A DNA stretch of 24,131 nucleotides from a virus (Duplodnaviria; Heunggongvirae; Uroviricota; Caudoviricetes): the IMG/VR virus record IMGVR_UViG_2667528074_000002, positions 1-24,131 of that record; one strand, 5' to 3'. The translations under genes and the position numbers were made by a program. The notes under the pieces were generated by a model. The model saw only the letters and a list, made by a program, of their open reading frames with translations, ran no database searches and was not told where the DNA came from. Every line of letters begins with the position of its first letter. The first letter of the stretch is position 1. Positions 1 through 23,564 of this stretch are shown here, piece by piece.

Positions 1-2
1 TG

Positions 3-386
3 CCCTGCCTGTCGTTCGCTTTCTGTTGCGGTTTCGGCACCCTGCTGCGCCTGCGCCACCATTTCCTCAAATCGTTTGACGACATCCGGCTTCAGGTCAC
101 CTTCATCAAGTGCAGTCAGAAAGTCGTTCAGCGTGCCGGGCTTTGAGTCGTGGTAAACCGAAATATCACCGACGCAGTATTCCCTTTCAATACACGACCG
201 AAGATAAACGTCATATTTTCCGGTCTGAGCTTCAAAAGCATATTCTCCTGCCGGACCTGTCACCACTGTAGCCACCGTTCTCATGACCACTGCGGATGTA
301 TTCTGTCGGGCTTTCAGAAGAATATGATGACCGGACATAGGACGGCCAGCGCCATCAGCAAGAATCCCTGAGATGAGTGTGGACAT
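3..386 (-). CDS. Second side-tail-fibre gene, 5' portion only (open to window edge); N-terminus paralogous to Stf
   Basis: ATG at 386..384 preceded by a GGGG/A-rich RBS; frame stays open to position 3. Translation MSTLISGILADGAGRPMSGHHILLKARQNTSAVV...[21 protein letters not shown]...KRFEEMVAQAQQG aligns block by block with the N-terminus of the Stf ORF ([50 protein letters not shown]). Absent from the ORF track because it has no stop inside the window. Confidence 0.6.
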   Translation of the reverse strand, partial: MSTLISGILADGAGRPMSGHHILLKARQNTSAVVMRTVATVVTGPAGEYAFEAQTGKYDVYLRSCIEREYCVGDISVYHDSKPGTLNDFLTALDEGDLKPDVVKRFEEMVAQAQQGAETATESERQAG

Positions 387-396
387 AAATTTTTCC

Positions 397-421
397 CCAA
401 AAAAGCCAGCTTTCGCCGGCA
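397..421 (-). terminator. Intrinsic terminator-like hairpin between tfa and the second fibre gene
   Basis: On the minus strand GCCGGC-GAAA-GCTGGC (6 bp stem with one G.U pair, GNRA loop) followed directly by TTTTTT, beginning 6 nt after the tfa stop. Confidence 0.4.
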
Positions 422-426
422 ATGCT

Positions 427-1008
427 TTAACTGACAGGTTGCTGCGGCCAATCAATTTCCGGTGCTAAAGATGTATCAACCCGGTTCAGCAACACCCGAT
501 ACTTCTTCCAGGCCGCCAGTAACGAGGTTTCTTCCTCCGTTGCAATTTCCAGATCTGCAGCATCCTGAAGCGGTGAAATATGCTCACTGGCTACCTGCAT
601 CAGGCTGTTTTTTGTTTCTTCCGCCTCCCGGATCCGGAACAGTCTTTCTGCTTCTGCATCTTTCACCCAGGCTGTACCGTTCCACTTCTGATACTCTCCA
701 TCCGGGGATAACCAGGTGACATTTTCCGGTAACGGACCGGGTTCAGAAATAAATAATGCATCCCCTGATGCCACGTCATAAACCGTTTTACCCCGATGGT
801 CTTCAACGAGATGCCACGATGCCTCATCACTGTTGAAAACAGCCACGAAGCCAGCCGGAATATCTGGCGGTGCAATATCGGTACTGTTTGCTGGCAGACC
901 TGTATGAGGTGGAATGTATGCATCACCTTCACCAATAAATTCATTGGTTCCGGCCAGCAGATTATAAATTTTTATGGTCCGTGGTAGTTCACTCATTCTG
1001 AATGCCAT
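427..1008 (-). CDS. tfa: Tail fibre assembly protein (lambda Tfa-like chaperone)
   Basis: 193 aa [57 protein letters not shown]..., matching my recollection of lambda Tfa (194 aa). Its start overlaps the stf stop (TAATG), indicating translational coupling. Confidence 0.85.
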
Positions 1009-3332
1009 TATGCAAGCCTCACAATATAGTTAAATGCGATGTTTTTAACGGTGTTTTCCGCGTTACCCGCAACGTCAACAGTAATGGTATGTCCGTGTGA
1101 ACCAATACTGAAAGAATGGGCATGAGCACCGATAACAACCGGATGCTGGTGCGCACCAATACCAACTGTATGCGCATGTGCACCGGCACTCACGGCTGTA
1201 CCGGACAATGAGTGACTGTGGTTGCCCTGACTGTCCGTTTTCGATAAATAAGCAATACCCTGTGTGTTGGTTCCTTTAACTGTGGATAAACTTCCTGTAA
1301 TGGTTGCTGTTCCATACTGACTCCAGCCAGAACTGTTCATCCTTAAACCACTTGTGTGGGCATGAGCACCCGCGGCCCCTGTTGAACCGCTCAGACTGTG
1401 AGCATGAGCCCCCGTGTTATTCGTCGATTTGGTGCCGTAATCGAAACTGCCTGTTGTTTTCGTCCCGTAATCAAACGACGATGTGGTTTTCGTCCCCAAA
1501 TCCGTACCGGATGCACTGGCACTGTGGGTGTGCGACTTAATTCCATCCTGTTCCTGAGACAATACAGCACGACCGCTGGCGGGTTTCCCCTTGATTGTCC
1601 AGCCTCGCATATCAGGAAGCACACCCGATGGATACGCGACAGCAAGTTTTGGGTAGGCTGATTTGTCAAACGCCTGCCCCTGCATCAGGACGTAGCCAGA
1701 CGGAACGATATCTGATGGCCACGGGATCGGCGCACCTGCCGGAAAGGCCGAATTCTCTCCGGCCCCAAGGTATTCAAGAACATCTGCAACGGAATTTTTT
1801 GCCAGAATATCCCTGCCAACCTGAGTCAGTTCAGTCAGGCTGGCGACATCATTTTCCGTAAAATACGGTAATTTATTTTTCGCCGTGGAAAGCCCTGCCA
1901 GCGCCGTCAGTGTCGCATTCTTCGGTTGCTTACCCGCAAGCGCGTTAGTCATGGTGGTAGCAAAATCTGGATCATTCCCGAGCGCTGCGGCCAGTTCATT
2001 CAGCGTATTCAGTGCGTCAGGTGACGCGTCGATAACATCTGCAATCGCGGCCAGTACAAAAGCGGTGTTCGCAATCTGGGTATTGTTTGTTCCCCTGAGC
2101 GCGGTTGGTGCTGTTGGCGTTCCGGTCAGTGCCGGACTGTCCAGTGGGGCTTTTCTGTTCGTTTCATCCATTACCACCTTAACCGCCTTTGGCGTTGCAG
2201 CAAGCGTTTCAGACGTGCTGTTGGTTGCACTGCTGAGCTGCACTATCCCCTTTCTCGTTGTGTCCGCATCCTCAAGCGCGACAGCTGAAGCTATATCTTC
2301 TGCACGTTTTGCCGAATTTTCTGCACGTATTGCCGCCGCTTCTGCCGCACTTTTGTTCTGCGATGCTGATACCGCACTTCCCGCAGCCTCTGTCGCCTTC
2401 GTGGATGCCGTTGACGCACTCCCCGCCGCCGCTGTTTTTGCCTCTGCCGCGGCAGAGGCGCTCCGTTCCGCTGCTGTTTCAGATGACCTGGCATTCGTCT
2501 CGGACGTTTTTGCCGCCTTAGCAGAATTTTCTGCCGCCGTTGCCGAGGAAGCTGCACGGCCGGCACTTGATGATGCGTTCGTTTCTGATGATTTTGCTGC
2601 CTCTTTTGAGGCCACCGCATCTCGTGCTGAAGTGGCGGCCTCTGACGCTTTCGTGGTCGCGGTGGAGGCAGACGTGGCGGCTGATTGTTGTGACGCTGCC
2701 GCATTCGTTTCTGACATTTTCGCCGCACCGGCACTGGTGGCCGCCGCGCGTTTTGAGGACTCTGCGGCTGCGGCACTTTTTGATGCCTCAGTGGCCTTTG
2801 CTGATGCCGTTTCTGCGCCGGAAGACGCATCCTGAGCCGACGTCGCAGCCTGTCCGGCGGACGTGCTGGCGGCGCGTGCTGAGTCAGTTGCATCAGTCAC
2901 AAGGGCCGCGACCTGAGCAGCTGATGCACTGGCATCGCCGGCTGATTTCTTCGCGTCTGCCGTACTCTGTGCCACCACGGACGCGTTACGCGCCACCTCT
3001 TCCACCATCAGTTCAAGACGGCGCAGTGCCTCCGGACGGGCATCATCCTCCGTCATGGCACCGAGAAAATCATTCAGCGTACCGGGTTGTGAATCTTCAT
3101 AAACGGTGATGGTCCCGGCGTGCGATGGCGGAAAACCGTCAACCTGCAGGATGACACTGTACTGACCGTACTCCACATCCATGCTGTAACGCCCGGCTTC
3201 ATCCGGATTCTCTGAGCCCACCGTGTTCACCACCACCGTGGTGCTGTTACGTCTGGCTTTCAGCTGAATGGTGCAGTTCTGTACCGGTTTTCCTGTGCCG
3301 TCTTTCAGGACTCCTGAAATCTTTACTGCCAT
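1008..3332 (-). CDS. stf: Side tail fibre protein, full length (unsplit Stf)
   Basis: 776-codon ORF in the track; ATG at 3332 gives [28 protein letters not shown]... (the track's first M at 3338 is a GTG). N-terminal attachment region, long Ala/Ser/Thr-rich shaft and C-terminal His-rich repeats (GAHAHS, GAHAHT, GAHQHP, GSHGHT) match what I recall of lambda Stf. Confidence 0.85.
2246..2975 (-). repeat. Low-complexity Ala/Ser/Thr-rich repetitive coding region inside stf
   Basis: Protein stretch built of reiterated short motifs ([36 protein letters not shown]...[51 protein letters not shown]). At DNA level this is GC-rich and quasi-periodic, and it generates long spurious ORFs in other frames on both strands. 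Confidence 0.5.
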
Positions 3333-3340
3333 ATTCACCC

Positions 3341-3372
3341 CACAAAAAAGCCCACCGGTTCCGGCGGGCTGT
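3341..3372 (-). terminator. Intrinsic terminator downstream of lom
   Basis: Minus strand AGCCCGCC-GGAACC-GGTGGGCT (8 bp GC-rich stem) followed by TTTTTTGTG; sits between the lom stop (3397) and the stf start. Confidence 0.55.
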
Positions 3373-3396
3373 CATAACACTGTGTTACCTGGCTAA

Positions 3397-4017
3397 TCAG
3401 AATTTATAACCGACCCCAACGATGAATCCGTCAGTACGCCAGTCGCCACTGCCGGAGCCTTCATAAGCAATATCAACAACGACGGACGCTGCCGGATTAA
3501 TCTGTATACCAGCACTCCACGCCACTGAGGTATGCCGCATTGCACTTTCGTCCCTGGCGGTGGTCGTCTCTTTCATATACCCGGGAGTGATTTCCGTCTT
3601 GCGGTAATCCCTTGTACTGCCGGACCACCGACTGTGAGCCACTCCGGCCATGGCGTACGCACTGACCTGCTTACTGATTTGTAAAACCGGTCCGGCCATC
3701 ACGCTCACATAACGTCCACGCAGGCTCTCATAGTGAAACGTATCCTCCCCGGTCATCACTGTGCTGCTCTTTTTCGACGCGGCGAACCCCAGGGAAGCCA
3801 TCACCCCCACACTGTCCGTCAGTTCATAACGGTACTTCACGTTAATCCCTTTCAGATGACTCACACCGGTATCCCCGCCCGACAACGACGGCAATGTACC
3901 CGGTTTCACCTGAAAATAGCCCACCGTAAACGTACCCTGTCCACCTTCCGCACGGGCCGGAGTGACTGTCACCGCAAGTGCGGCAAAGACAGCAACGGCA
4001 ATACACACATTACGCAT
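3397..4017 (-). CDS. lom: Outer membrane beta-barrel protein Lom (Ail/Lom/PagC family), lysogenic-conversion moron
   Basis: 206 aa with N-terminal signal peptide MRNVCIAVAVFAALAVTVTPARA and C-terminal ...GVGYKF ending in an aromatic residue, typical of OM beta-barrels; matches my recollection of lambda Lom. RBS GAGAGGTGAA upstream of the ATG. Confidence 0.85.
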   Translation of the reverse strand: MRNVCIAVAVFAALAVTVTPARAEGGQGTFTVGYFQVKPGTLPSLSGGDTGVSHLKGINVKYRYELTDSVGVMASLGFAASKKSSTVMTGEDTFHYESLRGRYVSVMAGPVLQISKQVSAYAMAGVAHSRWSGSTRDYRKTEITPGYMKETTTARDESAMRHTSVAWSAGIQINPAASVVVDIAYEGSGSGDWRTDGFIVGVGYKF

Positions 4018-4032
4018 CGTTCACCTCTCACC

Positions 4033-4062
4033 GTTTTATAATAAAACGCCCGTTCCCGGACG
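4033..4062 (-). terminator. Intrinsic terminator-like hairpin between J and lom
   Basis: Minus strand CGTCCG-GGAA-CGGGCG (6 bp stem with one U.G pair, tetraloop) followed by TTTTATTATAAAA, 17 nt after the J stop and just upstream of the lom RBS. Confidence 0.45.
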
Positions 4063-4078
4063 AACCTCTGTAACACAC

Positions 4079-7000
4079 TCAGACCACGCTGATGCCCAGC
4101 GTCTGTTTCTTAATCACCATAACCTGCACATCGCTGGCAAACGTATCCGGCGGAATATCTGCCGAATGCCGTGTGGACGTGAGCGTGAACGTCAGGATCA
4201 CGTTTCCCCGACCCGCTGGCATGTCAACAATACGGGAGAACACCTGTACCGCCTCGTTCGCCGCGCCATCATAAATCACCGCACCGTTCATCAGTACTTT
4301 CAGATAACACATCGAATACGTTGTCCTGCCGCTGACAGTACGCTTACTTCCGCGAAACGTCAGCGGAAGCACCACTATCTGGCGATCAAAAGGATGGTCA
4401 TCGGTCACGGTGACAGTACGGGTACCTGACGGCCAGTCCACACTGCTTTCACGCTGGCGCGGAAAAGCCGCGCTCGCCGCCTTTACAATGTCCCCGACGA
4501 TTTTTTCCGCCCTCAGCGTACCGTTTATCGTACAGTTTTCAGCTATCGTCACATTACTGAGCGTCCCGGCGTTCGCATTCACGTTACCACTGATATCGGC
4601 ATTTTTCGCCGTCAGCCGACCATCAGGTGTCAGGGAAAATGCCGGAGGATTACCGCCGCTGGTAATGGTGGGGGCCGTCAGGCGTTTCAGGAACACGTCA
4701 TTCATGAATATCTGATTGCCCTGCGCCACAAACATCGGCGTTTCATTCCCGTTTGCCGGGTCAATAAACGCGATACGGTTAGCGGCAACCAGAAACTGGC
4801 TCAGTTTGCCTTCCTCCGTGTCCTCCATGCTGAGGCCAATACCCGCGACATAATGTTTGCCGTCTTTGGTCTGCTCAATTTTGACGCCCCACATGGCATT
4901 CCACTTATCGTTGGCGTCCTTCCACTCTTTCGAAAACTGCTCCAGTTTGCTGGCGTTATCCTCCGTCAGGTCGACTTTTTCCAGCAGCTCTTTACCGAGA
5001 TGGGATTCGGTTATCAGGCCTTTGAAAAAATCCAGGTAACCTTCGGCATCATCGCTCGCCCGACCGACGGCCTCCACGAATGTCGATTTGCCGACTGTGT
5101 TCACACTGCGAACGTAAAAATAATAATCATGGCCCGGCTTAATATTGATACTGGCGGCTATCCAGTACAGCGCCGTGCCAAGATAGCGGGCTGTGGTTTC
5201 AACCTGCCTGATATCCGCAATCCGCGTTTCCGAAAACCAGAACTCAAACTGCACTGTCGGGTCATATACAGCCAGTTTCGGAACCGCCGTTATCTGAAAA
5301 TAGCCTGGCGTCAGCTCAATCTGTGACGGCGCAGCCGGTGCGGCAATCCGGAAAGAGACCGACGCCGCATCGCCCTGTTGCCCCCACGCATTTACCGCCC
5401 GGACCGTCAGCGTGTAATGCCCCAGCGCCAGTTGCCTGAAGCGGTATGTGGTTTCCGTCGTCCGGGCTGTGCTGACCAGCCGTTCACTGCCGTCATCCGC
5501 TGCCACGGTCAGGCGAAGCAGGAAGCTCACGCCCTTCACCACCTTCGGCGTGTCCCAGCGGGCCAGCACCTGATATTCCCCGCTGTCTGCGGTGACTTCG
5601 GCAGTCAGGTGCTGCACCGCTGGCGGCGTGACCCCCTTCACCGTACCGCTCTGGTCGCCGTCAAAGTGCGCCCCGTTATCCACGATGGCCTCTTTTTCCG
5701 GTACATGCTGCACGGCGGTGATGGCATACGTGCCGTCATCGTTCTCACGGATACTCACGCAGCGGAACAGGCGCTGGCGCAGCGTCGGCAGCTTCAGCCC
5801 CCATACGCTGTATCCGGCAACGCCGTCAGGAATCCGGCTCACTTTCACCTTCACGCCGTCGGTGACGGACCTGACCTCCACGCTGACCGGATTACCCTTT
5901 CCGTCAACCAGGCTTATCAGTGTGGTGCCGGAGGATGGCAGCATGATTTCACGGTCAAGCGTCAGCGTCCGGGTCTCGCTGTTCACCGCCAGCACGCGAC
6001 CACCGGTACTGATACCGGCATAGTCATCATCGCAGACTTCAATGACGTCACCCGGTACATGGCGAAGCCCTTCTGCACCCACGCTGAAGTCCACCGTCTG
6101 CGTTTCCAGCAGTTCCGTTTTAATCAGCCACAGACCGGCGCGGTGTGCCTGCCCCCGGCTGGTACAGCCAAAGGCCTCCATCTTCGTGACGTTACGACCG
6201 TAACGGGCAATAGCCTGCGTATCTTCAACCAGCTCCGTCGCCGTCTCCCAGCCGTTATCCGGGTCAATCCAGTTCACCTCCACGGCATTATGGCGGTCTT
6301 TCAGGGCGCTGAAGCTGTAACGGAACGGCGCGCCATCATCCGGCATCACCACATTGCCGCGGTTATAGGTCCACACCTTATCCGACGGTCTGTCCTGCAC
6401 GAACGTCAGCGTCTGTCCGTTCCATACCGGCATACAGCGCATCGCCGAACAGAAATCACTGAGAACGTCCCACGCCTTACGCTGTGATGCCAGATAAGCA
6501 TTACAGGTGATACGCGGCTCCGTGCCACCATAGCCATCCGGTACTGACTGGTCACAGTACTGACCGATAACATACAGGGTCCATTTATCCACCTCCGCTG
6601 CCCCGAGACGTTGTCCCATGCCATAACGCGGATGGGTGAGCATGTCCCACAGGCACCAGGCCATGTTGTTACTGTATGCCGGTTTAAGTGTCCCGTCCCA
6701 GATACCGCTGTACTGCCGCGTCTGTGGATCATAGTTCGACGGTACCTGCAGAATGCGTCCACGAAGATGGTAATTACGGCCCACCTGCTGGCTGCCAAAC
6801 TGCTCTGAATCCACCTGTACGCCGACCAGTGCCGTGTTCGGGTATCCCTGTTTCACATCGATGATTTCGGTGTATGACGACCAGAGCGTTTTATTCTGCA
6901 GCTGGTCTGTGGTGCTGTCAGGCGTCATCCTGCGCATCCGGATACTGAACGGGCGCGGCGGCAGGTTATCCACCACCACCGAGGCCAGATACTGCGAGGT

Positions 7001-7477
7001 GGTTTTACCCTTAATGGTGATGTCTTTTTCTGTCACCCAGGCGCCGTTACGCTGGATCTGGGCCAGTAATCTCACTTCTGACGGATTGCGGTCCCCCTGA
7101 GACGTGGTTTCCACCAGAGCCTGCACACCAAACGTAAAACGCAGGCGGTCGATATTTTCTGATGTGATGGTCCGGGTGATCGGCGTGTCGTATTTCACTT
7201 CCGTACCCAGCACCGTCTCGGAGCCGGAGGATTCAAAACCCTCCGGCGGAGTCTGCTCCTGCTCACCGGCACGGAACACCACCGTGACCCCGGAGAAATT
7301 GGCCTTACCTTCACTGTCCAGCACCGGCGTACTGTTCAGCAGCACGCTTTTCATTCCGTCCACCGGTCCTTCAATCGGCCCTTCACTGATCGCATCAATC
7401 ACGCTCAGTAACTGCGTGGATTTCAGGTTATCTTTCGCTTCGCGAGGAGTGTGCCCCTTGCTGCCACCTTTACCCAT
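4079..7477 (-). CDS. J: Tail tip / host specificity protein J (central tail fibre)
   Basis: 1132 aa [44 protein letters not shown]... ending ...[21 protein letters not shown]; same length as lambda gpJ and collinear with it as I recall it. Confidence 0.9.
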
Positions 7478-8185: not shown

Positions 8186-8826
8186 TTGTCGGTATACCTC
8201 TCTCGTTTGCTCAGTTGTTCAGGAATATGGTGCAGCAGCTCGCCGTCGCCGCAGTAAATAGCGGCATGATTCGGCACCGATGAACCAAAGCAGCACAGCA
8301 GCACATCGCCCGGCTGCGCCGCTGACAGGGTGACCGGGTAAAAGCCGGTATCCGCCATGTTGTCCAGGTAAAGATTCTGACCGTTACGCCACCAGTCATC
8401 CTCACGATGAAAATCCGGTATCTCAATTCCTGCCAGATGATAAGCGTCCCGGAACAGCGTGTAACAGTCCGTCACCCCGTGCTCAAAGCGCCTTCCGGTC
8501 AGATGTGGCACGCAGCGGAATTTATGGAGAGCCCCCCGACAGACCAGCCACCACGGCAAATCACTCTGTACCTGCAGCTGACGGTCGGCTTCACTCAGCC
8601 AGGGCAGACCACCGGGATGGCTGTGGACCAGCGCCACCACCTCACCCTGTATTTGTGCCCGCAGCCAGTCTTCCGGTACCATCCGGAAACACGCCTCCGG
8701 AGTACCGGAGATATTCACGCAGGGAAAATATCTTTCCCCCTCCGGCGTTCTCACCACGAAGCCGCACGACTCCGCTGGCGCACATCGCCGGGCGTGCGCC
8801 AGAATCGCTGATTCAGTCTCTGTCAT
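8083..8826 (-). CDS. K: Tail tip assembly protein K (JAMM/MPN plus NlpC/P60 two-domain protein)
   Basis: Chosen start ATG at 8826 (MTETESAILAHARRCAPAESCGF...) overlaps the L stop. JAMM-like motif HSHPGGLPWLSEADR preceded by a conserved Glu; NlpC/P60-like Cys (GVTDCYTLF) and His (VPNHAAIY). The 8901 start in the track is probably an artefactual extension. An internal Met at 8682 would give 199 aa, the annotated lambda K length as I recall it. Confidence 0.8.
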   Translation of the reverse strand: MTETESAILAHARRCAPAESCGFVVRTPEGERYFPCVNISGTPEACFRMVPEDWLRAQIQGEVVALVHSHPGGLPWLSEADRQLQVQSDLPWWLVCRGALHKFRCVPHLTGRRFEHGVTDCYTLFRDAYHLAGIEIPDFHREDDWWRNGQNLYLDNMADTGFYPVTLSAAQPGDVLLCCFGSSVPNHAAIYCGDGELLHHIPEQLSKRERYTDKWQRRTHSLWRHRAWHASAFTGIYNDLAAASTFV

Positions 8827-8833
8827 GGATTTA

Positions 8834-9529
8834 CTACGAAAGTTTATTGATGGAAAGGAAACCGCCAAAGTTACCGACGTTATGACGTGACTTACAGCCA
8901 CTCAGGCATTTACTGCATTTATCCTTCGTGATATCAGACGTCGGCTGGTCATATTCATCCGCGACAGCCGGACCGTGATAACCGCACTCATCACCGCGAT
9001 AGGTCCAGGTACAGGTGTTGGCCAGCATGGTACGTCCCGGGAAAACCGCACCGTCTGTCTCCGCTGGCGAGGCCAGAACAAACGTTGCCGTCACCGCCGT
9101 CAGATCGCTGCACTGTTCAATACGCCAGTAACTGATCACCTCCTGTTCCGGATCGGCTTCACTGTTTCCGTTGGTAAAATTCACCGCATCCAGAAAACGG
9201 GCGTAAACCTTACGCCGGATCACCGTTCCGCCAGCCAGACTCTGTAAATCCTCCACCATCCCGGTAACCATCCCGTACAGATTGGACACCGTCAGGGTGG
9301 GGCGGGCGCTGCCTCCCTTGCCTTTCATTTCAAACCCTGCTCCCTGAACAGGATACACCTCATATTTCCGGCCCTGCCAGGTGACGGCCTCCCCCTTCTC
9401 GTTAGGCTCATTACTGAAAAAATAACGCTCCCCGCCAATCTCTGTCAGATCAATTTCCCAGAGTACCAGACTGGCAGACTGCTCCGTACGGGTACATTCA
9501 TTCAGTGTTTCCTGCCGGATATCCTGCAT
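8834..9529 (-). CDS. L: Minor tail protein L
   Basis: 231 aa; C-terminal cysteine cluster (CTWTYRGDECGYHG...CSKCLSGC) consistent with the Fe-S-binding C-terminus of gpL; size and position match lambda L. Confidence 0.85.
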   Translation of the reverse strand: MQDIRQETLNECTRTEQSASLVLWEIDLTEIGGERYFFSNEPNEKGEAVTWQGRKYEVYPVQGAGFEMKGKGGSARPTLTVSNLYGMVTGMVEDLQSLAGGTVIRRKVYARFLDAVNFTNGNSEADPEQEVISYWRIEQCSDLTAVTATFVLASPAETDGAVFPGRTMLANTCTWTYRGDECGYHGPAVADEYDQPTSDITKDKCSKCLSGCKSRHNVGNFGGFLSINKLS

Positions 9530-9538
9530 CCGTCCTCC

Positions 9539-9871
9539 TCATACCACGACCTGTTCAAAATTTGCGGTTACCGTGACCCACAGCGCCCCCACACTGGACG
9601 ACCATTTACGGCAGACCACCCGGACAGGTGTCCAGCCATAAGGCGGTGTCCACTGAAACGCCCTGACCCCACCGTGCCGGGCCAGAAACGCTTCCAGCGC
9701 CTGATGCTCCCCTTTACGGACACGGATCGTGACACTGTACGTTGGCAACAGAGGATTCAGTCCCGCCGGACGACGCTGTTCATAACCATCACCCAGTTTA
9801 ACTGTCACCACTTTTGGCTCTGAATCCACCTTCATATCCGGACGGACTTTCCAGCTGAATATCTCCATCAC
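9539..9871 (-). CDS. M: Minor tail protein M
   Basis: 110 aa; ...GDGYEQRRPAGLN...TYSVT...WTPPYGWTP...CRKWSS...FEQVV resembles lambda gpM; overlaps the H stop. Confidence 0.85.
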   Translation of the reverse strand: MMEIFSWKVRPDMKVDSEPKVVTVKLGDGYEQRRPAGLNPLLPTYSVTIRVRKGEHQALEAFLARHGGVRAFQWTPPYGWTPVRVVCRKWSSSVGALWVTVTANFEQVVV

Positions 9872-12800
9872 CGGTATACTCCGCTTAACTGCCCGCCATC
9901 ACGGGACTGTTGTTGCATAAAATCTGCTGCAGCCCTTTTCCCCAGGTTGTAAACCGCCTGCATGGCTTCCGGCCCAATCTGCCCGTTCTGACCATCGTTA
10001 TTGATCTCGATGTTGTACTGCGGCGCAAACATCACCATCCCCGAACCACAGGTCGCTGCCACAACACCCAGCTTACCGTCAACCCCCCTGCGCAAGGGCA
10101 GGATAGCCTCAGGCCCCGCTTCACCCATCACCCCCGCGCCTTTTGCAAAAGCAAAAAACGTCGGACGGTTAACCACCGTGCCACTGTAGCGACTCAAATC
10201 AGCAGACTGATAAACACCACCTTCTGCATTGGTTTTCACATCACCGAAATCAAACCCCATCACACTGCCAATCCCTTTGACAGCCTTCATCATGGTTGCC
10301 TGCGCCAGAATTTTTGCCATATCTGACAGCACAGATGAGGTGAAAGATTTGAAATTGAGTTTGCCGGTGGTAACAAAAGTTGCCAGACCATTTCCCATAC
10401 TACTGAAAGCAGACATAAACATCTGTTCTGCAGTCCCGGCAGCATTATCCGCGTCGGCAGTAAAATTCATGAACGCGCGTTTTGCACCGTTTTTCCACTC
10501 CCCCTGCGCGGCATCCATTTGTTGCCAGTAGCGGCGATTCTCATTCAGTTTCCGGTTCAGACTGTCTGTCAGCGTCTGTTCAGCCTTCCGGTATGCGTCA
10601 GAACCATACGAGCCTTTCTGCTTACTGTCCCGTTCAAGTTGCTCCAGCTGTTGCTGGTACTGCTGTCGTAGACGCAACTGCGACTGGTACCGCTGCCGTT
10701 GCTGATCGCCCATTCCTGCCATGGCAACGTCCAGATCGTGTTGCTGACGCTGTGCGCGCTCTTCCTCAGCCAGTTGACTGGTCAGCTGAATGGTCTTTTT
10801 CTTCAGGTCATTGAGGGCAGTCTGCTTCTGCAGCTCCTGCTGTTTTGCATCCAGCAACGTCAGTGCCTGAATCAGCTCATCCTTGTGAGCCAGCACACTT
10901 TTTTCATCTGCTGTCAGTTTTTTACCGGCCAAATCGCTGATACGCTGCTGAAGGGCCAGAAGCTGTTTATGCGCTTCTGTCATCCTTTCAGTAGCCATGC
11001 CCGCTGACTGTCTGGCGGCGGCAATCTGTCCCTCCACCTGCGCCTGTTGCTGGCTGTACTGCAGTAATAACCGGGTGGCCTCATCATTACGGGTGGCAGG
11101 AGTTTTTTTCTTAATGGCTTTTTCGTAACGTTCATTTTCACGCTGTATCGCTGCGTCCCTGACCGCCTGATCGGCGTACTGCATGGCATTAATACGCGCA
11201 ATTTCACGCTGATGTCGTGCTGCTTCCGTTTCGTTCATCCGGTTCAGCGCGGCATTTTCAGCATTCCGGCGTTTCTGCTGCTCCTGATAATTTCGCTCAG
11301 CCTGCTCTTTTGCATCCTGCAAATCCTGCTGGCGTTTTCGCTCTTGTAGCGCATCCAGTTGTTGCTGATCGTATTCCACCGTGGTGGACGCCTTAGTCCA
11401 CGGAAATTTCTTCGCCCGCTGAATTTTTTCCTGCAGCGACGCAATCTGCGCATCAAGGGAATCTTCCCGACCAATGTTCATGGCCGCATCCCAGAACTGC
11501 TTCCACCAGTCAGACAAGGTTTGCAGCGTACTGCCCAGCGCATTGAGGTTATTATCAATATCCGACGTACGTTTACCGGTTTCCTCTGCCAGTGCAGACA
11601 TGGCTATCCGGGCGGCGTCACTGGTACGCCCCTGCTCTCCGAGCACACGGATCTGTTCAAGCTGGGTGGCTGTCAGAAAATGCAGTTCATCATCCAGCGC
11701 CTTCGCAGCACTGACCGGATCATCCTTCAGCCGTTTAAACTGACTGATGGTGTCACTGACAGACTGCCCTACCGAGCGTTCCATCTGTGCGGCAGCTTTC
11801 GCCACCATACCAATATCGTTACCGTGAAATGCACCGCTCCCCACTACCTGCGCCAGTGACCCCGCCATGGCATGTTGCGTGATGCCATTACCGGAAAGAT
11901 TTTTACTGAGCGCCCACAACTGCCCGGCTGTCACACCGGCATAGTGTCCGGTGAGCTCAAGCTGCCGGTTAAAGGCTTCGCCTTCTTCCTGCCCCTCCAT
12001 CCAGGCTTTACCCAGACCAATAACCGCAGCAGTGATCCCTCCGATAACTCCCCCCACCGCCAGGCCTTTCGGAGTCATTAATTTATCAATCCAGCCGGCA
12101 CGGTTAGCCAGGGTGATCCCGGAGCCACGAAGCGCACCGAAATTACCACGCGCCAGTTCACCAATCATGACCCCCAGCTCCCGACGAGCTGCCGCACTTT
12201 TCAGTCCCAGCGAATGTGTGGTGTTTCCGGCTTTCTCCATTTTACGGATGTACACCTCCGCGGCACTGCTGCACCCAAGTTGTGCCGCCTTTGCCCGAAG
12301 CAGTTCCGTCGTGGTCATTTTCTGGCGACTTGTCTGTTCTTTCAGCTGACGAATAAATGCGGTTTTCTGGCGGGTGGCCGTTTCCTCTGCCTGTGTCAGA
12401 ACGCGGGTTTTCGCTGTCACCTCAGAAATCAGGGCCAGATAATCCTGCTGAGCAATCCCGCCACTGTTTCTGGCCTGTCGGATCTGCTGCTGAATACGCT
12501 GTAACTCCTGCAGCCCCGCACTGGCCTGTTGTACGCTGTCGATCTGACGATAAAATGCGGCAGCCATCTTATCCTGCGCCGCAGCCAGCGCAGCCGCCTG
12601 AACCTGCTCCTCCCGCATCTGACGACTCAGGGCCTCCATCCGCAGGCGCGCCCTTTCCACATCTTCCGCCAGCGAAACATGCCCCTGCGCATGCTTCACC
12701 ACGGCCTGAGTCTGTATCACCGTCGCGCTGGCAGCCTGTTTCTGACTTTCCTCAAACCGTTTCATACGGGCTTCGGCCCGCTCCGCCTCCTTTGCTGTAC

Positions 12801-13643: not shown

Positions 13644-14384
13644 TTAATCACCATTAACGGTAATACCGGCCACAGCAACCTGCGCACCACCCGCAGTCAT
13701 CCCCACAATCGAGGTGCTGCCCGCTTTCACACCTTTCACCGTTGCCACCATGCCACTCAGCGTAACCGTGGCGATATCAGGAGATGATGACGCCACACTC
13801 ACCGTTTTATCAGATGCATCTTCCGGTACTGTGCTGAATGTCAGCGTCGTCGTTGCCCCCACTCTGACACTGGCGGAAACCGGCATTACTGTCAGCCCGG
13901 TCACCCCCACAATTTCAGTCCCCTCCTCAGCCAGATACGGACGCCCCACACCGCTGATTTTAACCGTACGGGTCATCACATCTTTTGACGTAATGGTTTT
14001 ACCCAGCGAACTCAGCCAGCCGCGGAACACATCAACGGTACCGTTAGGGTATTTGATGCGGAATGCACGAACTTCACCGGAATCAAACAACTGAATCAGT
14101 TTTTTCTGTCCGCTGTCACCCGGACGCCAGGCCAGCGTCGCGGATGTATCACCAACAGATTTTTGCCCCTGAGTTGTCGTTTTCCAGTCAGCATTTTCAT
14201 CATCGAGATAATCGTCATCTTCCGCATCTGCAGTCATTTCCCCCGGCTGCAGATCCTTCACCATCGCGAGGCGCAGCCAGTCCGTATCTGACAAAGGATT
14301 CGCAAATGCGTCGCCCTTGCCGGTATACATCCAGAACGTCGTCCCCGCCCCTTTCATTTTTTCAAGTGGATTCGGTGTCGTCAT
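13644..14384 (-). CDS. V: Major tail protein V with C-terminal Ig-like domain
   Basis: ATG at 14384 (MTTPNPLEKMKGAGTTFWMYTGKGD...) with RBS GGGGTGGGG, giving 246 aa as in lambda gpV; the C-terminal third (TVMPVSASVRVGATTTLTFSTVPEDASDKTVSVASSSPDIATVTLSGMVATVKGVKAGSTSIV) looks like a Big_2-type Ig-like domain. Confidence 0.9.
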   Translation of the reverse strand: MTTPNPLEKMKGAGTTFWMYTGKGDAFANPLSDTDWLRLAMVKDLQPGEMTADAEDDDYLDDENADWKTTTQGQKSVGDTSATLAWRPGDSGQKKLIQLFDSGEVRAFRIKYPNGTVDVFRGWLSSLGKTITSKDVMTRTVKISGVGRPYLAEEGTEIVGVTGLTVMPVSASVRVGATTTLTFSTVPEDASDKTVSVASSSPDIATVTLSGMVATVKGVKAGSTSIVGMTAGGAQVAVAGITVNGD

Positions 14385-16061: not shown

Positions 16062-18134
16062 TTACGCCGTACATTTCACCAGACCGCGGTGATCAACCGG
16101 TGCAACGCCGGCGTCAATACGCACTTTCGTGGTCACGCCATCCACACTGAAACCTTCCATCTGATCAATGTATGGCGTATCCACACCGTTGAGATAAGCC
16201 ACTTCAATCGTATCGGAGCCTTTGGATGCAGCCAGATAAAAGGTGGTCTGGCTGCTATCATCCAGACGCGGCTCAGCGATAACGGTCGCAAAATCTTTCA
16301 CTGGGTTAATAATACCGGCATTGACGTCTGCGCCTTTCACACTGGCAGAGCGGATCACCTGGTTAGCCACCGATTCCATCGCCGTCGGTACCAGCACGAA
16401 CGCAGGGCGAATATTCAGGTGACGCTCACCTTCTTTCTGAACACGCATCAACTGGCGGGCTTTATCCAGCGATGCCACGTCCATTGCTGCGCTCTCCAGT
16501 ACGTTTGCATGTTTCGCTTTATCGAACAGGCTTACATTATCTGTGGAGATTTTCGGGTTAGAGGTCAGAATGGCATAAACCAGATCGGCAATCGTGGATT
16601 TCGCCGCACGGCCCAGCTTCATCGGGACATCGGTCAGCATATTCAGATCATCATTGATAATGGCCTGACGGGTGATACTGAACAGTTCACCATAGGTCGC
16701 CAGTGCAATCGTGGCCTGTTTATCTCCGGTGGTGACGTACTTATATTCAGCCCCTTCACGCACCTGACGCAGAGAACTGAAGCCCCCCATTCCCACACGA
16801 TGAGCAATTTTAAAATCAGACAGCTGACCTTTCCGGGTCCACTGCTCGTAAGTCTCAGGGGCTTCTTCCCAGCCCTGCAGAATGGCTTTGTTCGCAACAT
16901 CCAGCAGAATATTACCGAAGTCAGACGAGCTGTGTGTGAATGCCGCACCAACCATCTGCATGGGGTTATAACCGGAAACCCCGATACCCCGTTCAGTCAG
17001 CGACATACGGGCATATTCGCGCAGGGTCATCCCGTTGTAGACGTTATCCTGTTCACGCTCAGCAAATCCGGCGCGTGCCATCAGCGCCTGTCGGATCCCG
17101 TCCCCCACAAAATTACCGTTGCCGGCATAAATATGGGACGGGGTATTTTTATTTGATGGTGAAAATTCCTTACCCATTTCATTCAGTAACTTCTCGCGAG
17201 CCTGCTCAAGCGAGCACTCCGGATCGGAAAGACAACTGGCCTGCAATGTCTGATAACGCCCGCCAAACATACCAAACAGATCATTAATACCACTCACGCG
17301 TGCTTTTTGCTCAGCCAGCACCTGTGCACGGATACTGCTTTCATCTGCGGAAGACGCATTTGCAGTGGTCACGGTACTTGTCGCGGTTGCGGCAACCTGA
17401 GCCGTAGTCTGCTCCTGTGTCTGAGATGCAGTATTTTTGTTTTCAGGCTCACGCGTTGCACTGTTGCGTGGCGGAGTAATCATATTTCGGATGGATTCCG
17501 GCATTTTTTTAAATTCCTCTGTACGTTTTGACTGAATACATGCCATTGCATTAACTTCCGGTGTCACCTGGTCAGCAAATCCGTGTGCCAGACATTCGGC
17601 ACCTGACATCCAGGTTTCATCCGCCAGCATGGCAGCAATTTCATCGGTAGTTTTTCCGGTTTTTTGCGCATAAGCAGGCAACAGGACCGATTCAACTTTA
17701 TCAAGCAGGTCGGCATAATCGCGCATATCATCCGCATCACCACCACTCACTCCCCATGGTTTATGGATCATCATGAATGCATTTTCAGGCATGATGACGG
17801 GATCCCCCACCATCGCAATGACCGACGCCATTGACGCCGCCACACCGTCGACATAAACGGTAATGGACGCACCATGTGTTTTCAGTGCATTAAAAATGGC
17901 GATGCCTTCAAAGACATCGCCACCCGGTGAATTAATATGGAGATTGATGTGGGTGATATTACCCAGCGCATTCAGATCACTGACAAACTGCTTCGCCGTA
18001 ACTCCCCAGAAACCAATCTCGTCATAGATATAAATATCTGCGTCACTTTTATGACCCGCCTTCATCCTGAACCAGGAATTATTCTTCAGGCTGGCCTTCG
18101 GTTCGCCGCGAAACCACGCGTTCTGTTTCAGCAT
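16062..18134 (-). CDS. Prohead protease (ClpP/S14-like) - linker/scaffold - major capsid protein, encoded as one ORF
   Basis: ATG at 18134 (MLKQNAWFRGEP...) with RBS AAGGAGGTGG. N-terminal ~200 aa carry ClpP-like Ser/His/Asp motifs (GVAASMASVIAMVGD, FMMIHKPWG, AHGFADQV). A Thr/Ala/Gln-rich linker follows (...TASQTQEQTTAQVAATATSTVTTANASS...), then a ~400 aa C-terminal region of capsid-like size and composition. No stop codon separates them. Confidence 0.8.
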   Translation of the reverse strand: MLKQNAWFRGEPKASLKNNSWFRMKAGHKSDADIYIYDEIGFWGVTAKQFVSDLNALGNITHINLHINSPGGDVFEGIAIFNALKTHGASITVYVDGVAASMASVIAMVGDPVIMPENAFMMIHKPWGVSGGDADDMRDYADLLDKVESVLLPAYAQKTGKTTDEIAAMLADETWMSGAECLAHGFADQVTPEVNAMACIQSKRTEEFKKMPESIRNMITPPRNSATREPENKNTASQTQEQTTAQVAATATSTVTTANASSADESSIRAQVLAEQKARVSGINDLFGMFGGRYQTLQASCLSDPECSLEQAREKLLNEMGKEFSPSNKNTPSHIYAGNGNFVGDGIRQALMARAGFAEREQDNVYNGMTLREYARMSLTERGIGVSGYNPMQMVGAAFTHSSSDFGNILLDVANKAILQGWEEAPETYEQWTRKGQLSDFKIAHRVGMGGFSSLRQVREGAEYKYVTTGDKQATIALATYGELFSITRQAIINDDLNMLTDVPMKLGRAAKSTIADLVYAILTSNPKISTDNVSLFDKAKHANVLESAAMDVASLDKARQLMRVQKEGERHLNIRPAFVLVPTAMESVANQVIRSASVKGADVNAGIINPVKDFATVIAEPRLDDSSQTTFYLAASKGSDTIEVAYLNGVDTPYIDQMEGFSVDGVTTKVRIDAGVAPVDHRGLVKCTA

Positions 18135-19584
18135 TACCACCTCCTTTATCGCTGGCCGGATCGGTATCAAACACCAGATCCAGCCTGCGGTTTTCATCAA
18201 TTTCGGCCTTGCGCCGACGTTTGACATCATCCGGATTACGACCACTGGCGCGTACCCAGTCTGATTCTGTCGCCGCACCACCTCGGATCTGGATTCTCCA
18301 GGCTTCAGCTTCCTTGACAGGATCGATCCACGGCATCACCGGACCAGAATATGTTGCGTTATATAACGTTTTCATATCGACATCCGGCGGGATTTTCAGC
18401 AACCCAGCGGCAACCACCATATTCAGCCATGCCCGGTACACCGGACGGGTTACAGCACCAATAAAACAGTCCTGCATGATCAGATAACCATCGGTGGACT
18501 CGACCAGTTCCTGTCGCTGGGCGCTGTAGGTACCGTTATAGTTACGTGCTGCACTGGAAAAACTCAGACGTGTGCCCGCCGCCACGGCCCGCAACTGACC
18601 ATTACGAAAAGTTTCCAGGTTAGGGTTAGGCCGATCGGATTTGACCATGCCAATATCTTCCCCCTTGCGCAGATCGTCATAAATAATGCCGGGAGTGATA
18701 TGCAGTTCCCGGTCATTATCTTTATTTGTCACAACGTCTTCATAATCCTGTCCGTCTCCTTTACGGATATACAGCCCCAGAGCCGCAGCAATACGCGCCG
18801 CTGTCAGTTCAGCATCTTCATATTCCTTAAGCGCACTGATCCGCATCAACACACCTGACAACATGGATGTACCACGCGTCTGATGCAGCCGGCGGGTAAA
18901 CTTCAGATGCACCATATTTTCAGCGGCGATCTCTTTGGTATCACTCTGTCGGCCGGTAACCGGATAATTTTTATAAACCAGGTATTTTTTCGGCCTGCCC
19001 CACTCATCCAGAAAAACCCCCTGATTCATTCCCGCGGACTCATCACTGAGCATGGGCACAAAATCCGGCTCTATTGCCTCGAGCCAGAAAGGCACGCCGG
19101 CAGTCCGGACCAGCCCGGCACCTGCGCCTCTGACCATCTGGGCAAACACTTCACCATCACGTAACCAGGTACGCAGCAGCAGACGCTCGAGCATGGGGCG
19201 CGTATACTGCCCGGTCACATCCGGACTGACAGACCATTCCGACCACAAACGACGGATAATCATTGCCACTTCTGTGGCCATATCACCGTTTTTCAGTAAT
19301 GGCTGGGGTTCAACAATGATCCCTTTTGCACCAATCACCCGCTCCTCAAGTTTGTCGAAAGCACCGATTACCAGGTCATGATTGATATCCAGAAAACGGG
19401 CCTGCTCCCGCAGGGAAACCGCCCCATACTTACTGAGCTGGTCAGCAGAACGGTTTTCCCGTCGGGCTTTGTGTGTGCGGGTGGGTTTTACGGCCTCATA
19501 AGCGCGAATTAACGCTCTTGAGCGCAATCTCGCCGCCTTCCAGCCTGGTGAAAAAACACCAATCACATCATCCAGAATTGCCAT
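18079..19584 (-). CDS. Portal protein
   Basis: 501 aa ORF between the gpW-like gene and the protease-capsid gene; start overlaps the W-like stop; acidic C-terminus. Assignment rests on size and conserved gene order, not on a recognised motif. Confidence 0.75.
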   Translation of the reverse strand: MAILDDVIGVFSPGWKAARLRSRALIRAYEAVKPTRTHKARRENRSADQLSKYGAVSLREQARFLDINHDLVIGAFDKLEERVIGAKGIIVEPQPLLKNGDMATEVAMIIRRLWSEWSVSPDVTGQYTRPMLERLLLRTWLRDGEVFAQMVRGAGAGLVRTAGVPFWLEAIEPDFVPMLSDESAGMNQGVFLDEWGRPKKYLVYKNYPVTGRQSDTKEIAAENMVHLKFTRRLHQTRGTSMLSGVLMRISALKEYEDAELTAARIAAALGLYIRKGDGQDYEDVVTNKDNDRELHITPGIIYDDLRKGEDIGMVKSDRPNPNLETFRNGQLRAVAAGTRLSFSSAARNYNGTYSAQRQELVESTDGYLIMQDCFIGAVTRPVYRAWLNMVVAAGLLKIPPDVDMKTLYNATYSGPVMPWIDPVKEAEAWRIQIRGGAATESDWVRASGRNPDDVKRRRKAEIDENRRLDLVFDTDPASDKGGGNAETERVVSRRTEGQPEE

Positions 19585-23242: not shown

Positions 23243-23425
23243 TCAGTTCTGCATACACTGCCGAACACCGTCGACAATTTCACAGACCTGAGAAGCTGTA
23301 TCGAAAAGCTGGCGCGCCTTATCCAGGCTGACGCACCCCACCAATAAAAAAGGCACCAGTATCGCTACCAGTGCCCATTTCGCCGCCGTTCGCGGCATTC
23401 TGTGTGTCCAGTGTTTTCGGCTCAT
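23243..23425 (-). CDS. Small putative lipoprotein (about 60 aa precursor, about 30 aa mature)
   Basis: ATG at 23425 with RBS GGTGGTGGTGAC; N-terminal basic region MSRKHWTHRMPRTAAK, hydrophobic core WALVAILVPFLL and lipobox LVGC; mature peptide CVSLDKARQLFDTASQVCEIVDGVRQCMQN with Val at +2 and three Cys. Start codon sits 1 nt after the stop of the upstream small ORF (TGA-C-ATG). Confidence 0.5.
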   Translation of the reverse strand: MSRKHWTHRMPRTAAKWALVAILVPFLLVGCVSLDKARQLFDTASQVCEIVDGVRQCMQN

Positions 23426-23426
23426 G

Positions 23427-23564
23427 TCACCACCACCTGACCGCACTAACCAACTGTGCAATACCATACAAACACAAGCAAAACGCTCCAGCCTTGATTA
23501 ACCAGGCGGTAGCTACACTGATTTCGCTCGTCACCGGAGCTTTCAGTTCAGGGCCGTTTTTCAT
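23427..23564 (-). CDS. Small putative single-pass membrane protein (45 aa), translationally coupled to the lipoprotein gene
   Basis: ATG at 23564 with RBS GAGGT (6-nt spacer); MKNGPELKAPVTSEISVATAWLIKAGAFCLCLYGIAQLVSAVRWW with a C-terminal hydrophobic helix; its stop is 1 nt before the lipoprotein ATG. The longer 71 aa version in the track lacks an RBS. Confidence 0.35.
   Translation of the reverse strand: MKNGPELKAPVTSEISVATAWLIKAGAFCLCLYGIAQLVSAVRWW

Follow-up and report, generated by a model that had tools for sequence, protein, structure and literature searches.

A second collar-domain fibre gene behind stf and tfa in a late-gene contig of an mEp460/lambda-like phage of Escherichia coli

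The subject of this work is a stretch of viral DNA of 24,131 bp (IMG/VR record IMGVR_UViG_2667528074_000002, referred to here as the window), which carries late genes of a temperate, mEp460/lambda-like siphovirus of E. coli, and, within it, a second side tail fibre gene, denoted here stf2, that follows the pair made of the fibre gene stf and its chaperone gene tfa. The order on the minus strand is J (4079-7477), lom (3397-4017), stf (1008..3332, with its ATG at 3332), tfa (427..1008), a hairpin with a run of T and then stf2, of which the 5′ part, 128 codons long (1..386, ATG at 386-384), is present before the gene runs off at base 1. An earlier note on this DNA, made from the letters alone, had described the second gene as continuing beyond the window. 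The gene is indeed cut, but the window turned out to be the entire draft contig LIQA01000045.1 of assembly GCA_001413995.1, whose end falls inside stf2, and the remainder of the gene is missing from that contig.

The first cassette closely resembles that of lambda. The stf gene encodes an Ur-lambda-type side tail fibre of 774 residues, with 97% DNA identity to lambda stf, in one uninterrupted frame, while stf of laboratory lambda is frameshifted. The protein matches the Pfam families PF08400 (246 bits, E 8e-74), Phage_fiber_2 and Collar, the first of which is the prophage tail fibre N-terminal family, that is, the collar domain that anchors the side fibres of Ur-lambda. Comparison with the PDB paired its N-terminus with 9e7m_Ta, the Ur-lambda collar domain (1.4e-55), and its tip with T4 gp37 (2xgf, 2e-72). 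The collar, or attachment, domain delimited by the match to 9e7m_Ta comprises residues 1-94 (3051..3332, minus strand) and is 98% identical to that of Ur-lambda. The exact Stf protein is recorded on one contig only, LIQA01000045.1. The product of tfa is the tail fibre assembly chaperone of Stf (193 residues; Pfam PF02413, Caudo_TAP, 3e-43). The stf-tfa block as a whole is 97% DNA-identical to lambda, and the near-identity ends at about base 446, some 20 nt short of the tfa stop codon and inside the final ~45 nt of the gene. As the earlier note had stated, there is only one stf in lambda, and what lies 3′ of its tfa is ea47, on the opposite strand.

The visible part of stf2 is homologous to the beginning of stf. 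In a BLASTP alignment with Stf residues 1-127, 51 of 127 positions were identical (40%) and 59% were positive, with no gaps and an E value of 1e-28, and the fragment matched PF08400 in its own right (175.6 bits against a cut-off of 26.6; E 6e-52); in RefSeq, both genes are labelled ‘prophage tail fiber N-terminal domain-containing protein’. The tandem of fibre genes with homologous N-termini described from the letters is therefore real, and the reservation that their similarity might prove insignificant on formal alignment can be set aside. The same reading took the second copy for a diverged paralogue of Stf with which it shared an attachment domain. The homology holds, and so does the common attachment fold, the collar-type domain of Stf2 (residues 1-94; 105..386, minus strand) being recognised by both a profile and a fold match to 9e7m_Ta; what does not stand is a local duplicate, the domain being of a different subtype and the cassette apparently imported, nor is a common attachment site borne out. 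A local duplication of stf was indeed considered and rejected, given the 40% protein identity, the lack of any DNA repeat between the two genes and nearest relatives that lie in other phage types. An invertible, shufflon-like fibre switch was discarded as well: no invertase gene lies between J and attR in the relatives described below, and no crossover-type inverted repeats were found, the sole inverted repeat being an imperfect 16-nt pair with an 88% match, and with this the earlier suggestion of a switchable host range fell.

Between tfa and stf2 lies the terminator-like hairpin that had already been noticed in the letters (395..420, minus strand). It is made of a 6-bp stem (GCCGGC/GCUGGC) with five G-C pairs, a GAAA loop and a T6 tail, and its folding energy is -11.5 kcal/mol. 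It thus has what defines a Rho-independent terminator, namely a G+C-rich hairpin plus a U-run in an intergenic position, and termination activity is predicted. Because its fold is ordinary when compared with shuffled sequences (z -1.0), the call rests on the consensus pattern and the intergenic position. Two further hairpins of this kind are found between lom and stf (3339..3370, minus strand; a 9-bp stem with seven G-C pairs and a T-run) and between J and lom (4047-4062, minus strand; from a consensus scan), and each of lom, stf and stf2 has such a hairpin 5′ of the gene. These three are the top ones among 16 sites of the kind in 1-4200, about four being expected by chance. The tfa-stf2 spacer, hairpin included, is identical in nine of the ten relatives checked, L002 having one stem base changed, and a comparison aimed at the exact donor junction matched the spacer of this lineage to none of those in phiP27-, Rac-SA53-, P2-type and L024-type loci. 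In lambda, it is established that the Q-modified polymerase reads through such terminator sites during late transcription.

Evidence on the missing part of the second cassette came from relatives that share the tfa-stf2 junction. There are 11 of them: two complete genomes, C5 (NZ_CP010122, 1,736,460-1,741,401; Stf2 protein WP_073521232.1) and 2013C-3264, eight drafts and a contig from IMG/VR (L026). The stf2 gene is intact in every one, with 473-474 residues in the ten that reach the end of the gene; L026 ends within the stf2 shaft. In those ten, stf2 is followed by a gene for a 187-residue DUF4376 protein and then by attR, the end of the prophage, and both genes are intact in the ten loci translated. 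The short pseudogene remnant that the earlier note had contemplated is thus contradicted in the relatives, the copy of this genome being visible up to codon 128. The exact Tfa protein was found in 95 blocks of the assembly collection, and the eight of these places that were displayed all presented J, lom, stf, tfa, a PF08400 protein of 473-474 residues, the 187-residue DUF4376 protein and host genes, the host site being ssrA/smpB in seven and the yciE-trp side in one. The nearest relative, L008, matches the window with 99.65% identity across 8 kb. In 2013C-3264, J, lom and Stf are clearly unlike those of the window, and J and Stf among the junction prophages range from 82 to 99% identity, with two integration sites. 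When summed over allele pairs, pN/pS amounted to 0.155 in stf2, 0.23 in the DUF4376 gene and 0.125 in tfa; relative to several alleles, the fragment in the window had 11 synonymous changes and not a single non-synonymous one. More widely, stf2-like DNA is present in 158 of 5,426 complete E. coli genomes.

The DUF4376 gene of the relatives starts 8 nt past the stop codon of stf2, and its product matches PF14301 (58 bits, cut-off 25) and PHROG 1141 (4e-84). When it was compared with Tfa no similarity was detected, so each fibre would have its own chaperone, of a different class. Judging from its sequence, the protein is of the fibre-chaperone type, a folding role having been shown for distant members only. 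Alteromonas phage V22 needs its DUF4376 protein gp27 for the gp26 fibre to function (PMC7289586), and in Campylobacter CJIE1 a DUF4376 gene located 3′ of the H-fibre is required for fibre activity (PMC7882524). The DUF4376 protein gp9 of phage A5 binds its fibre and may cap it, but is not required (PMC10579305).

The architecture of Stf2 was deduced from profile searches and from a structural model. A phmmer search with the near-identical Stf2 protein of L008 retrieved 9e7m_Ta (1.5e-17) and the collar spike of the XM1 neck (7kjk_A3, 8e-6), and a profile of the Stf2 family matched 9e7m_Ta at 1.8e-27 and XM1 gp40 at 4.6e-12; between lambda-type Stf and XM1 gp40 nothing reached E 0.01. An AlphaFold model was made on P0001, a protein 96% identical to L008 Stf2 whose 90%-identity cluster has 368 member sequences, from a 40-sequence alignment; its mean pLDDT, 65, is low. 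The model presents strands at residues 2-8, 20-26, 37-42, 48-54, 56-64 and 68-77 and a helix at 85-91 (pLDDT ~57-82 in the N-domain), that is, the collar fold of six strands plus a helix seen in PDB 9MGH/9E7M, and in Foldseek this N-domain superposed on 9e7m_Ta with a TM score of 0.79 and an rmsd of 2.8 Å, XM1 gp40 superposing less well. Past the N-domain there is a long helix (100-228), a disordered stretch and a globular part (266-474; pLDDT 80-92 over much of 261-360). On this model, the 474-residue Stf2 of the relatives would consist of a ring-forming collar of ~94 residues, a helical shaft of ~130 residues and a globular distal domain of ~210 residues. The distal part resembles tail fibre proteins of phages Goslar and Av-05; a comparison with the PDB gave no significant match and one with BFVD gave only viral fibre proteins, from which no receptor can be inferred. 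Distal domains like that of Stf2 (up to 91% identity) were also observed on the PF12571 (P2 H-type) baseplate anchor, in P0048, P0052, P0053, P0058, P0064 and P0069, so that one receptor-binding module is carried by three different anchors.

The origin of the second cassette was approached by collecting 79 IMG/VR loci related to Stf2, whose flanks were classified with marker proteins, and by clustering at 65% identity 108 PF08400 N-domains from these and other loci; the sample was chosen by similarity to Stf2, and its proportions are not population frequencies. The Stf2 subtype comprised 70 N-domains, 49 of which were located in contractile-tail contexts: 17 after gpD of P2-like tails, 16 in Rac-SA53-like tails, where they follow tfa, and 16 in phiP27-like tails. 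Seven more were in truncated or deleted contexts. The remaining 14 were found in lambda-like tails, always as the second fibre, 13 of them from the lineage of the window (the window being counted twice) and one independent (L065). The Stf2 N-domain is 40-45% identical to lambda-type domains, which formed two clusters (34 members) and were always in the first fibre after lom. In some 20 lambda-like loci, a Stf2-like distal domain with a DUF4376 gene constitutes the sole side fibre, and all of them have a lambda-type N-domain. The protein used for the model, P0001, is encoded after gpD in a P2-tailed prophage, and the L008 and P0001 cassettes have 96.4% identity across a stretch of 1,936 nt that begins near codon 11 of stf2 and stops roughly 30 nt short of the 3′ end of the chaperone gene. 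Because of this identity and of the distribution of the subtype, the second cassette is not taken for a diverged copy of stf; it appears to have been imported as a block from contractile-tailed prophages, or to be part of a pool shared with them.

The survey of these loci also provided several observations of a different kind. In L065 (7297-11839), L066, L068, L070-L072, L075, L082 and L083, the similarity to the distal domain resumes in another frame after an ORF of ~304 residues; this subfamily occurs in both lambda-like and contractile-tail contexts, and could represent a split tip gene or a conserved frameshift. In L016 (6961-10917), located at the ompW site of E. coli PSJ-22, a Stf2-type fibre gene (788 aa) and a DUF4376 gene come immediately after the major capsid gene, while in the related Stx2e prophage (L015/L098) a whole P2-like tail cluster lies between those genes, so that L016 looks like a tail-gene deletion. 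L024 and L089 (~8600-12000) present contractile-tail baseplate genes and then a fibre whose distal part resembles that of lambda Stf, a Tfa of lambda-like type, a terminator-like hairpin unlike that of the window, a Stf2-type fibre and a DUF4376 gene, that is, the four-gene order of the window on another tail type.

Where a collar of this subtype might bind can be discussed in the light of what is known for Ur-lambda. Residues 1-94 of Ur-lambda Stf form a dodecameric collar at the junction between the gpV and gpM rings, four trimeric fibres are each tied to three collar domains by linkers of ~10 residues, and the β4-β5 loop contacts E63 of gpV and K2, W6 and R80 of gpM (PMC12617516). The window encodes both halves of this known docking site, the distal tail protein gpM (9539..9871, minus strand; Pfam PF05939) and the tail tube protein gpV (13644..14384, minus strand; Pfam PF16461), each 55% identical to its lambda counterpart; E63 of gpV and W6 of gpM are kept, and in gpM K2 is changed to E and R80 to T. 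Since a Stf collar that is 98% lambda-like stands on gpV and gpM only 55% identical, collar docking seems tolerant of partner changes. Two subtypes of lambda-type N-domains (lambda-type and cluster-3), 53% identical to each other, occur on similar tails. The lambda contact residues were also considered as a docking test for Stf2, and they proved uninformative, K2 and R80 being changed though a lambda-type Stf is present. Docking may hinge on the closure of a ring around a cylinder of conserved size and not on side-chain contacts.

A different precedent is the Vibrio myophage XM1, in which six gp40 trimers bind the connector and the tail terminator at the neck by means of an Ig-like N-domain of ~100 residues (PMC10457771). 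The Stf2 subtype, with 77-92% identity, is found in three phage groups whose tail and head-neck genes are unrelated. A tentative proposal, which we consider rather unlikely, is that the Stf2-type collar is an anchor indifferent to the type of tail, ringing a generic feature of the virion, most plausibly the head-tail junction as XM1 gp40 does, and that the cassette can be plugged unchanged into P2-, Mu- and lambda-like virions. If so, this prophage lineage would be a lambdoid with two separate fibre rings, one being the Stf collar at the tail tip and the other made up of whisker-like fibres at the neck. The architecture of the neck is the part of the virion most alike between contractile and non-contractile phages, and for this reason, together with the homology to gp40, a Stf2 ring at the head-tail junction is slightly favoured over a mixed gpV/gpM collar. 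No shared neck or tail protein was detected between the window phage and the phages with the same anchor, so no common docking partner can be named.

These results lead us to lean towards an interpretation in which the second cassette is functional in this lineage and provides an accessory fibre that adds a second receptor specificity. In such a phage, the late operon would end with two fibre cassettes, Stf with Tfa and then Stf2 with the DUF4376 chaperone, and both would be expressed by late transcription that, antiterminated by Q, continues past the intergenic terminators. Each fibre would be trimerised with the help of its own chaperone, Stf2 would join the virion through a ring of collar domains, and the particle would carry a second receptor specificity beside those of Stf (with an OmpC-type tip) and J. 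Several facts weigh against this interpretation. In this genome stf2 is visible to codon 128 only, at a contig end, and the junction is rare, with two occurrences among 5,426 complete E. coli genomes. A Stf2-type collar domain is the primary fibre after lom in none of 34 lambda-like loci and, because in addition the Stf2-like distal domains found there are carried by lambda-type N-domains, this suggests that the Stf2 anchor may not fit the gpV/gpM site. L065, the sole independent lambda-like tandem, has a second fibre ORF of only 304 aa. The low pN/pS may be imported, as the cassette has clearly been exchanged between phages, and could come through recombination with copies selected in contractile-tailed phages. 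Finally, the V, U, Z, connector, portal and capsid proteins of the window have no detectable similarity to those of phiP27, and weak portal and terminase matches only to the P2-tailed Stx2e prophage.

Part of this evidence fits a passenger, brought in when recombination at the 3′ end of tfa fused a lambda-like late operon with the right-hand terminus of a contractile-tailed prophage; the Stf2 anchor would not fit a lambda-type virion, and the fibre and its chaperone would be made and not incorporated, the genes being too young to have decayed. Such a passenger would account for the end of lambda identity within the last ~45 nt of tfa, a gene highly identical in many prophages, for the 96% identity to the copy of a P2-tailed prophage, for the lack of a Stf2-type N-domain in the primary Stf of every one of the 34 lambda-like loci, where Stf2-like distal domains are lambda-anchored, and for a rare junction in a phage whose tail and neck proteins have no detectable similarity to those of phiP27 or the P2-tailed prophage. 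We nevertheless regard it as rather unlikely, considering that stf2 is intact in all 11 relatives and the DUF4376 gene in ten, in prophages that vary in J and Stf (82-99%) and occupy two integration sites, and that pN/pS remains at 0.15-0.23; moreover, an N-domain subtype that already serves three unrelated tail/neck gene sets is not tightly partner-matched, and lambda-type N-domains tolerate gpV and gpM that are 55% identical. A similarly modest chance is given to a mixed collar, in which Stf2 trimers would compete with Stf for the 12-position (four-fibre) gpV/gpM collar and each virion would bear a mixture of fibres. Stf2 and Stf have the same fold (TM 0.79) and the same domain order (collar, short linker and helical shaft), the motif PGTLNDFL at the end of the domain and a Gly in the β4-β5 turn are kept across subtypes, and docking appears tolerant, N-domain types 53% identical being found on similar tails and the lambda-type domain on gpM proteins that are 55% identical, with two of the three named gpM contacts changed; but the Stf2 subtype, which shares only 40-45% identity with lambda-type domains, was not once observed in the primary Stf, and sharing four positions would cut the copy number of each fibre.

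It could also be that stf2 is broken in this particular genome, the contig ending at codon 128 because of an interruption, such as an insertion sequence (IS), and not because of a repeat. IS elements, like repeats, cause assemblies to break, the whole contig stops inside the gene, and the fragment is ~97% identical to the relatives, against 99.65% to L008 over 8 kb. However, there is no stop or frameshift in the 128 visible codons, the changes are all or nearly all synonymous, all relatives are intact, and the shaft region just past the break has 89-96% identity among fibres from different types of prophage, a level that would on its own interrupt a short-read assembly. The break is thus probably due to a repeat, and we consider an interruption quite improbable.

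The head and tail genes of the window have their nearest phage relatives among mEp460-like phages (82-83% DNA identity). An ORF of 739 aa (16062-18281, minus strand) combines ClpP-type protease and capsid protein domains and overlaps the portal ORF, as is usual in mEp460-like heads. An ORF of 74 aa (23243-23467, minus strand), with a lipoprotein-like signal (…LLVGC), lies ~860 nt upstream, in the direction of transcription, of the gene for the small terminase subunit.

Phages with two receptor-binding fibres are well known, as are all the protein families described here, and Stf2 can be compared with several of these systems. Ur-lambda Stf/Tfa (PDB 9E7M/9MGH; PMC12617516) has the same succession of a ~94-residue collar of six strands and a helix, a linker and a helical shaft, trimeric in Ur-lambda and presumably in Stf2, encoded in the late operon 3′ of J and lom. 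Unlike it, Stf2 has a collar of another subtype (40% identical), a length of 474 aa instead of 774 with a much shorter shaft, a distal domain unrelated to the gp37-like tip and a DUF4376 partner instead of Tfa; in addition, lambda has a single gene, while stf2 sits after tfa and so is not the primary fibre directly 3′ of J-lom. The closest relatives in sequence, with N-domains 77-92% identical, are L56/L57 of phiP27, tail3/tail4 of Rac-SA53 and the terminal fibre pair of P2-tailed Stx2e-type prophages, which have the same DUF4376 partner and occupy the same place, last in the late operon and next to attR. These phages, however, have contractile tails and their own baseplate fibre (of DUF3751/Mu-S type), whereas the phage of the window already has a PF08400 fibre; our search of the literature found no experimental study of the proteins of these three pairs. 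XM1 gp40 (PDB 7KJK; PMC10457771) has, ahead of a trimeric fibre, a homologous N-terminal Ig-like domain (profile E 4.6e-12; Foldseek E 3e-6) and shows that such a domain can ring the virion away from the tail tip, but it forms six trimers on the neck of a contractile-tailed phage and is 23% identical, and a neck attachment of Stf2 is conjectural.

T5 p132/pb1 and DT57C LtfC with LtfA/LtfB form a dodecameric collar on a siphovirus tail with non-essential side fibres that speed adsorption, and DT57C displays two receptor specificities at once; there, however, the collar is a separate protein and both specificities are on one branched fibre, whereas here each fibre has its own collar domain. The G segment of Mu with Gin, the C segment of P1 with Cin and Pin of e14 also give a temperate phage two alternative fibre specificities with cognate chaperones, although they do it by site-specific inversion behind one constant N-terminal part, whereas the present locus has two complete genes in the same orientation. 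A search of open-access full text found no papers on a lambdoid with two collar-domain fibres, or on the spread of a Stf2-type anchor across morphotypes, nor did the PF08400 family yield anything relevant there.

Side fibres set the adsorption speed and the strain range of lambda-like phages, and engineered lambda Stf chimeras have already been used to retarget DNA-delivery particles (PMC11338833). Even if the cassette were only a passenger, the locus would still document the reshuffling of prophage ends by recombination in a conserved tfa. A natural lambda-like phage in which two fibres each bear an anchor would illustrate the addition of a second specificity with the first one retained. If, moreover, the Stf2 anchor proves functional on contractile and non-contractile virions alike, it would offer phage engineering a ready-made, portable module for attachment, and would be a clear case of host-range modules moving between morphotypes.

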